A DNA stretch of 64,000 bases from Eledone cirrhosa (Eukaryota), in assembly GCA_964016885.1 (NCBI GenBank), contig OZ024752.1, positions 44,206,001-44,270,000 of the forward strand, written 5' to 3'. Made by a program: the position numbers and the translations under genes. Under the pieces are notes generated by a model. It had not been told where the DNA came from and ran no database searches. It saw only the letters and a list, made by a program, of their open reading frames with translations. Shown here one piece after another: positions 41,791 through 42,316 of this stretch (positions are counted from its first letter, which is position 1; every line of letters starts with the position of its first letter).

Positions 41791-42000
41791 GTGTATATGT
41801 ATGGAATATAGCTGTCGAAACGGCAAGAGCTCAGCCGTACTCTGTTGAATAATGATCTTATTAGTTTAATACTGGTAAAATCCTTATCTTTCTCTCTATC
41901 TATCTCTATCTCTCTCTCTCTCTCTCTATCTGTCTCTATATCTATCTATCTATATATATTTATATATATATAATTAGAAAGTAAACACAATATATAACTA

Positions 42001-42068
42001 CTCCATTACCAAAGGTTTCAGGACTCTGGACAGTATTAACATATGTCTAGTTCGCTCATCAGACAGAG
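42001..42068 (-). ncRNA. Type I hammerhead ribozyme with partly decayed stem II
   Basis: Minus strand reads ctctgt-CUGAUGA-gcgaactagaca...tgtccagagtcct-GAAA-cctttgg-UA-atggag. Stem I is 6 bp with two G-U pairs; stem III is cc/gg; GUA triplet. Confidence 0.65.
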
Positions 42069-42155
42069 GGGTTATATATAATATGTAGAGTTGTGTCGGT
42101 AGGTAACCACAGTTAAAAACGGGTACTCAATACATTGGTAGAATATAGGCATCTC

Positions 42156-42216
<61 letters not shown>

Positions 42217-42261
42217 TTCTACAAGACTAGAACTGTTTCATTTATATGAAATCATCAGGAA
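42217..42261 (-). ncRNA. Hammerhead-like motif (minus half of a palindromic pair)
   Basis: Minus strand reads ttc-CUGAUGA-tttcatataaat-GAAA-cag...ttg-UA-gaa. Stem I is only 3 bp and 10.1-11.1 is U-U. Confidence 0.4.
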
Positions 42262-42316
42262 TGACATCTCTGATGATTTCATACGAATGAAACAGTTCTA
42301 GCCCTGTAAGAGTCAT
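42261..42316 (+). ncRNA. Hammerhead-like motif (plus half of a palindromic pair)
   Basis: atgacatct-CUGAUGA-tttcatacgaat-GAAA-cag...ctg-UA-agagtcat. Stems I and III pair, but position 10.1-11.1 is a non-canonical U-U. Confidence 0.55.

Follow-up and report, generated by a model that had tools for sequence, protein, structure and literature searches.

Genomic Setting of the Hammerhead Cluster

The window, by which we mean the whole 64-kb stretch of DNA that was analyzed, carries the exons of three host genes (table 1), and these exons are embedded among microsatellites. The window comes from an octopod, as one SRP68 exon shares 98% identity with Octopus bimaculoides and 96% with Argonauta. Large minisatellites with units of 56, 31, and 30 bp occupy window positions 50407–53053, 54381–55890, and 59833–61022, respectively. 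At 38290–38910 a short unit alternates with (TA)n in both orientations and forms long palindromes, and short palindromes that have no hammerhead core lie at 5492–5602, 43955–44019, and 44957–45000.

A cluster of hammerhead-like motifs, here called A, B, and C, is flanked by two LINE copies that are oriented away from each other. The original prediction had reported inverted LINE fragments around the cluster, and both copies are real and divergent, with 73% identity over 663 bp. Many homologues of the right copy were endonuclease-RT proteins of about 1,050 aa with Pfam domains PF00078 and PF03372. The homologues have a single endonuclease-RT ORF of about 1,000–1,100 aa, and a short 3′ UTR and a tail of short tandem repeats were found as well; we take the LINEs to belong to the RTE clade from homologue architecture rather than from a phylogeny. 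The 3′ part of the left copy was 81–82% identical to distant copies and 75% identical to the right copy, so that the two are separate insertions, and the idea of one local inverted duplication was rejected because their mutual identity (73–75%) is lower than their identity to distant copies. There is no evident link between the LINE pair and the hammerheads. A small RT-like LINE fragment was also seen on the minus strand at 32835–33110 (RVT_1, E = 0.008).

Table 1. Features of the Window and of the Hammerhead Cluster (positions count from the first letter of the window)
Feature	Position	Strand	Basis or predicted cleavage
Alpha-mannosidase (GH38), host gene exons	2200–15000	−	
SRP68, host gene exons	26900–31160	+	
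Ribosomal S5-family protein, host gene exons	34729–35700	+	
Left LINE copy, RTE-type, 5′-truncated, short 3′ UTR, (GAT)n end	40424–41787	−	RVT_1, E = 1.3e-7
A, possible 3′ half hammerhead: GAAA, 4-bp GC stem III, near-palindromic loop, TA	41817–41839	+	Sequence
(TC)/(TATC)/(TA) microsatellite	41885–41976		Repeat scan
B, type I hammerhead, solo, with stem I of 6 + 9 bp (TATATA ending both sides), stem II long and mismatched, stem III of 2 bp	41990–42080	−	Predicted cleavage 42007/42006
C-family 3′ tail, at least 30 nt, may reach about 42085, minus arm only	42131–42160	−	Consensus of 99 contigs
(TA)27 inside the C long arm, between stem I and tail	42159–42212		Register of tail match
C-minus, type I hammerhead, stems I and II weakened	42213–42269	−	Predicted cleavage 42220/42219
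11-nt junction common to both C arms, center of symmetry 42264	42259–42269		Sequence
C-plus, type I hammerhead, stem I 3 + 8 bp, 3-bp stem II closed by U.U, loop III centered on a palindrome	42259–42325	+	Predicted cleavage 42308/42309
Right LINE copy, RTE-type, 5′-truncated, (GAT)n end	42370–43434	+	70 homologues at E ≤ 1e-20

Hammerhead Motifs and Their Frequency

The core elements CUGANGA, GAAA, and UH were present in type I order in B and in both arms of C, and hammerhead cleavage at the B and C sites is predicted from these motifs. A palindromic pair had been proposed at 42217–42316. This pair is real, with intact cores in both arms: CTGATGA at 42270–42276 and GAAA at 42289–42292 in C-plus, and the corresponding boxes at 42258–42252 and 42239–42236 in C-minus. 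C-plus has three stems around its core, with a bulge between the two parts of stem I, while the stems of C-minus are short (just 3–4 bp in stem I and 2 bp in stem II). Read on either strand, the 11 bases between the two cores form the 5′ side of stem I, in whose proximal part the arms differ at two compensatory pairs.

The core of B lies at 42062–42056 and its GAAA at 42019–42016, on the minus strand. At the foot of its stem II a G.U pair is followed by a mismatch, which fails the test for two paired bases at this place, and for this reason our type I descriptor missed B. When the test was dropped, a relaxation chosen after B had been seen, a comparable motif was found in 1 of 300 window shuffles. 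The motif that had been described as full at 42001–42068 is thus beyond chance, but its stem II is damaged and the word full was generous. The likeness of its loop II to that of the hammerhead at 53674 was not significant (P = 0.21).

Motif A consists of GAAA (41817–41820) and TA (41838–41839) around a stem and loop III that form a near-perfect palindrome (self-duplex −25.3 kcal/mol), a property through which Penelope hammerheads dimerize, and the CUGANGA of the type I core is absent. The sequence parts of the 3′ half hammerhead that had been proposed here are present, as is the reported lack of an upstream CTGANGA, but self-complementarity as strong as that of A occurred in 26 of 500 shuffles. 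The window holds 21 half motifs of this kind against a shuffle mean of 14.2. A is a doubtful half motif judged by its sequence. Displacement of its 5′ half beyond the left LINE was rejected, since no plus-strand CTGANGA occurs between 34526 and 42270.

The type I descriptor found five motifs in the window (19050, 19351, 42258, 42270, and 53674), corresponding to three events, whereas 150 block shuffles gave 0.43 on average and never more than 3; the proposed comparison of motif density with shuffled sequence therefore came out in favor of an excess. In the 581-bp region the descriptor found two motifs, the C pair, whereas 4 of 5,000 shuffles gave one hit and none gave two. Scanning the whole window, and the region by itself, against Rfam brought up no hammerhead family, only microsatellite and hairpin miRNA noise; Rfam likewise overlooked the microbial type III hammerheads described below. 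TATATA starts at most 15 nt from the cleavage site in 5 of 7 full motifs, compared with 3.7% of background positions, in this one window and with part of the TATATA of B and C belonging to the element and the B site being off by one base. The two misses were 18805 and 19050, and A lies 111 nt away.

No significant similarity was found among A, B, and C or between them and the motifs near 19 kb, with one weak exception, an AT-rich match between B and 18805 (P = 0.01 among 28 pairs). Apart from this match, the claim that the motifs are unrelated to each other and to the 19-kb families holds. As to the claim of at least five families, three pass the descriptor, namely B (with the stem II test dropped), C, and the group of 19050, 19351, and 53674, while the other two, 18805 and A, are tentative. 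The motifs outside the cluster have their own settings. A head-to-head hammerhead pair with 189-bp arms that are 96% identical lies at 18943–19458, with cores at 19050 (minus) and 19351 (plus); 53674, on the minus strand, is a diverged solo relative of this pair with an apparent bulged base and the G–C pair typical of Penelope hammerheads. At 18114–18900 a 630-bp inverted duplication (85%) stands beside a decayed hammerhead-like motif with its core at 18805 (minus), which fails the descriptor. A possible decayed hammerhead (GAAA, a palindromic 3-bp stem, and TT) was also seen at 19524–19651, followed by a palindrome of about 90 bp that ends in TA repeats.

Predicted Folding of the C Pair

When the hammerhead fold was forced, the predicted energies were −9.8 kcal/mol for C-plus, +7.1 for C-minus, and −9.7 for B, each above the minimum-energy fold of the same segment. 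Folding z-scores of the single motifs over the whole segment were weak (−1.1 to −1.5). Stems I and III are predicted to form when C-plus is folded alone. Its predicted minimum-energy fold contains a 6-bp hairpin that buries GAAA; this hairpin is disfavored, as it is disrupted by the change at 42281, the variant found most often in the family. The full C palindrome is predicted to fold as a hairpin of −51.7 kcal/mol, and because of this a read-through RNA of C would be a double-stranded hairpin of about 50 bp in which both cores are trapped. Such trapping of both ribozymes would make the C pair in this copy a likely inactive relic of a junction.

Copies, Junctions, and Tail of the C Family

Copy data cover C only and were collected from the contigs of four public sequencing runs (of 24 listed), compared with 42213–42328; the shares in the run search were small, 0.17 at most. 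In run X1, which presumably comes from a related octopod, 4,877 contigs match the 116 bp of C, 288 of them at 99% or more and 730, 1,796, and 2,063 in the lower bands. Runs X3, X5, and X6 gave 0 contigs on C, which does not prove its absence from them. The differences listed for X1 fell only at 42281–42284 in the right arm and only at 42246–42247 in the left arm, that is, in loop II of both, with the reservation that a position that has no row in the table is not thereby proven identical. Core and stems of C are thus conserved across copies while the loop varies, as far as these listed differences go. Their confinement to loop II indicates that stem II of C consists of three pairs closed by U.U, and it argues against the alternative hairpin hiding GAAA.

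Summed depth in X1 was 290,000–490,000 over the arm cores, compared with about 5,300–6,000 over the junction, or about 1–2% of arm depth. These values suggest that the C family may number tens of thousands of copies, 1–2% of them crossing the junction, an estimate that compares depth, which is not copy number, with long contigs at depth 4–13. The whole palindrome was found in at least 8 X1 contigs with 11–19 differences each and is a minor form of the family. A perfect 5-1-5 palindrome arises from changes at 42268, seen in 75 contigs, and at 42269, seen in 58, which make up about a third of the junction depth. The changes 42263 G>C and 42265 C>G, in 8 contigs each and at equal depth, keep the symmetry, the X1 table not proving that the same contigs carry both, and junction variants of the left arm are masked by the depth of solo copies. 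Moreover, the arms are joined at stem II instead in 6 X1 contigs, with both CUGAUGA boxes lost. The products of this second kind of junction are 3′ half hammerheads, so truncation inside stem II is a plausible origin of motif A also.

Ninety-nine X1 contigs run past 42325. Searched against the whole window, their consensus agrees best with the minus-strand sequence that starts at 42160, at 23 of 30 positions with no gap, and one 14-nt stretch of this match occurs nowhere else in the window. By this match, the DNA to the left of (TA)27 belongs to C as its tail. The tail is one-sided; the minus, or long, arm has it and the plus, or short, arm does not. The register of the tail also places (TA)27 within the long arm of C rather than at a landing site between B and C. 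A resemblance of the C tail to 40285–40392 was not significant (75 of 1,000 shuffles).

Comparison with Known Hammerhead Systems

Metazoan genomes have been found to contain thousands of heterogeneous and mostly solo hammerheads, with opposite-strand pairs and a palindromic loop III (Cervera and De la Pena 2014, PMC4209133). According to the same paper, Penelope hammerheads dimerize through the palindromic stem/loop III, and the minimal ones typically have G10.1–C11.1 and a bulged base after position 9. The cluster shares with them the type I fold, the many unrelated families, the solo copies, the opposite-strand pairs, and a palindromic stem/loop III that would suit dimerization. In contrast to their long, G–C-closed stem II with a bulged base, that of C is short and closed by U.U; B has G.U at the same position, so that both deviate from the minimal consensus. 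Furthermore, A, B, and C retain a real stem III, and the arms of C overlap by the 11-nt junction, whereas the pairs in that study are 100–700 bp apart. Octopus is not among the genomes named in the consulted text of that paper.

Inverted truncated copies, a one-sided tail of 30–40 bp, and a bias for (TA)n have been described for Penelope elements (Craig et al. 2021, PMC8557442), and palindromes occur at their head-to-head junctions, for which self-priming was proposed (Arkhipova et al. 2013, PMC3846280). The C pair resembles these pLTR junctions in its 5′ inverted truncated copy, its junction palindrome, its one-sided tail, and its TA-rich target. An inverted truncated copy with a palindromic junction is also seen at 18943–19458, and the tail of the C minus arm agrees with the 30–40 bp on one side. 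The arms overlap by 15 bp in the pLTR junctions and by 11 bp in C. C differs from them, however, in having no ORF, in the reduction of both arms to the ribozyme, and in the position of its junctions on the stem I strand or stem II of the ribozyme. In O. vulgaris, 30 Penelope families were recently active, and the words hammerhead and ribozyme do not occur in the main text of that repeat annotation (Bonar et al. 2026, PMC13282606).

U10.1–U11.1 is a natural hammerhead variant (Perreault et al. 2011, PMC3088659). We scanned metagenomes with a pattern of the C core and stem II and obtained four matches, three of which proved to be complete type III hammerheads, with a stem I and a 5′ strand of stem III lying outside the query pattern. 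All three (L002 401–426, L003 209–234, and L004 401–426) are microbial sequences whose stem II is closed by U.U, and Rfam misses them. The fourth match, L005, does not close into a hammerhead; the only match in genome contigs, L001, is not a hammerhead on inspection, and the scan of viral contigs gave 0 matches. C has the same core and the same 12-nt stem II pattern as the microbial U10.1–U11.1 hammerheads (PMC3088659; L002–L004), but L002–L004 have type III topology, no TA repeats, and no inverted partner. The likeness is likely convergence on a short motif. Taken together, the cluster behaves like Penelope ends, among which it may presumably be counted, with C departing from the minimal-hammerhead consensus at 10.1–11.1.

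Origin of the Cluster

We consider it probable that B and the C pair, which are real where A is doubtful, are heavily 5′-truncated 3′ ends of Penelope-like retroelements or their nonautonomous derivatives, stacked in a TA/TC microsatellite between independent LINEs. Among 230 ORFs of the window (at least 55 aa, complexity-filtered) there was no GIY-YIG domain, no Penelope RT, and no Penelope-labeled family, and for this reason the Penelope link of the cluster is one that we infer. A missing Penelope ORF is expected for truncated ends. The original prediction had spoken of repeated insertion of Penelope-like ends into TA microsatellites. The motif density, the many copies of C, and the proximity to TA support this, and the layout fits the literature; the link to a Penelope ORF would be indirect, and A may not be a hammerhead. 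The large ribozyme repertoire that had been read from the motifs was overstated, since most of them are probably repeat ends that have decayed or become trapped, and metazoan genomes were already reported to hold diversity of this kind.

Under the proposed mechanism, the Penelope reverse transcriptase would prime at a nick in a TA tract, copy the RNA from its 3′ end, and halt after about 60–100 nt. The end of the cDNA could then fold back on a self-complementary sequence of the ribozyme, either the stem II hairpin or the 5′ strand of stem I, and its extension would yield two head-to-head arms of which just one carries the tail. The role of the hammerhead in the parent element would be to trim tandem precursors of the RNA, where it would probably act as a dimer held together by the palindromic loop III. 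The centering of the junctions on the stem I strand or the stem II hairpin would be a new detail, and because both centers are self-complementary parts of the ribozyme, it points to fold-back self-priming of the cDNA end.

The first alternative, which we regard as unlikely, is that B and C are solo monomers of non-LTR retrozymes, short noncoding units that self-cleave from tandem transcripts, circularize, and reinsert, and thus SINE-like families in their own right instead of stubs of long elements. Non-LTR retrozymes are likewise short, noncoding, high-copy type I units, including in molluscs, and monomers occur (Cervera and de la Pena 2020, PMC7229834; Li et al. 2026 preprint); monomers are described as common, and retrozymes have been proposed to be derivatives of Penelope pLTRs (10.64898/2026.07.22.740005). 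The very high copy number of C, the several stem I variants around one core, and the lack of an ORF close by would suit this reading, as would the location of C-minus and B on one strand, where 213 nt separate their cleavage sites. However, B and C are unrelated in sequence, the window contains no head-to-tail tandem of like hammerhead units, a difference from the retrozymes of PMC7229834, and head-to-head pairs with one-sided tails are the pattern described for Penelope (PMC8557442).

It has also to be considered whether the palindrome of about 110 bp is itself mobile, as a double hammerhead of two polarities that self-cleaves on both strands and is copied in trans by Penelope enzymes, which seems improbable to us. 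The recurrence of the entire palindrome in at least 8 contigs is compatible with it but is also explicable by repeated fold-back. The junction variants G>C at 42263 and C>G at 42265, which preserve the symmetry, and the compensatory differences between the stem I arms speak for such mobility. On the other hand, just about 1–2% of the family depth crosses the junction, a second junction site exists, the hairpin is predicted to beat the ribozyme fold by about 40 kcal/mol, and the minus arm is degraded here. In a wider form, the double hammerhead would amplify as a unit whose strands share one stem I strand and self-cleave as in viroid-like RNAs, with Penelope copying in trans and the ribozyme stems serving as the self-priming sites of Penelope junctions; this we rate as quite unlikely. 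If it were true, hundreds of hairpin-forming loci accessible to ADAR or Dicer would have been seeded.

A TA-targeting MITE of a Tc1/mariner-type transposon, whose inverted repeats merely resemble a hammerhead, is very improbable. C is a short palindrome with TA at its bounds, and O. vulgaris has active Tc1-Mariner and MITE families (PMC13282606), but most copies are not palindromic and do not cross the junction, the interior is conserved and the ends are variable, conserved terminal inverted repeats are not found in all copies, variation falls only in loop II, and the tail is on one side. Finally, chance matches in AT-rich, hairpin-prone DNA, for which the frequency of half motifs, the shuffles that equal A, and the missing Rfam match could be cited, have next to no standing except for A, as neither the paired C motifs with their 4,877 matching contigs nor B, at 1 shuffle in 300, fit them.

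In our literature searches, no paper was found describing hammerheads in octopus or cephalopods, and searches combining "head-to-head" or "self-priming" with hammerhead terms likewise found no papers. Returning to truncated Penelope-like ends as the probable origin of B and C, the finding adds an octopus family to the known class of hammerheads. Moreover, many minimal copies with junctions on ribozyme hairpins would allow self-priming to be tested directly by statistics on a single assembly.
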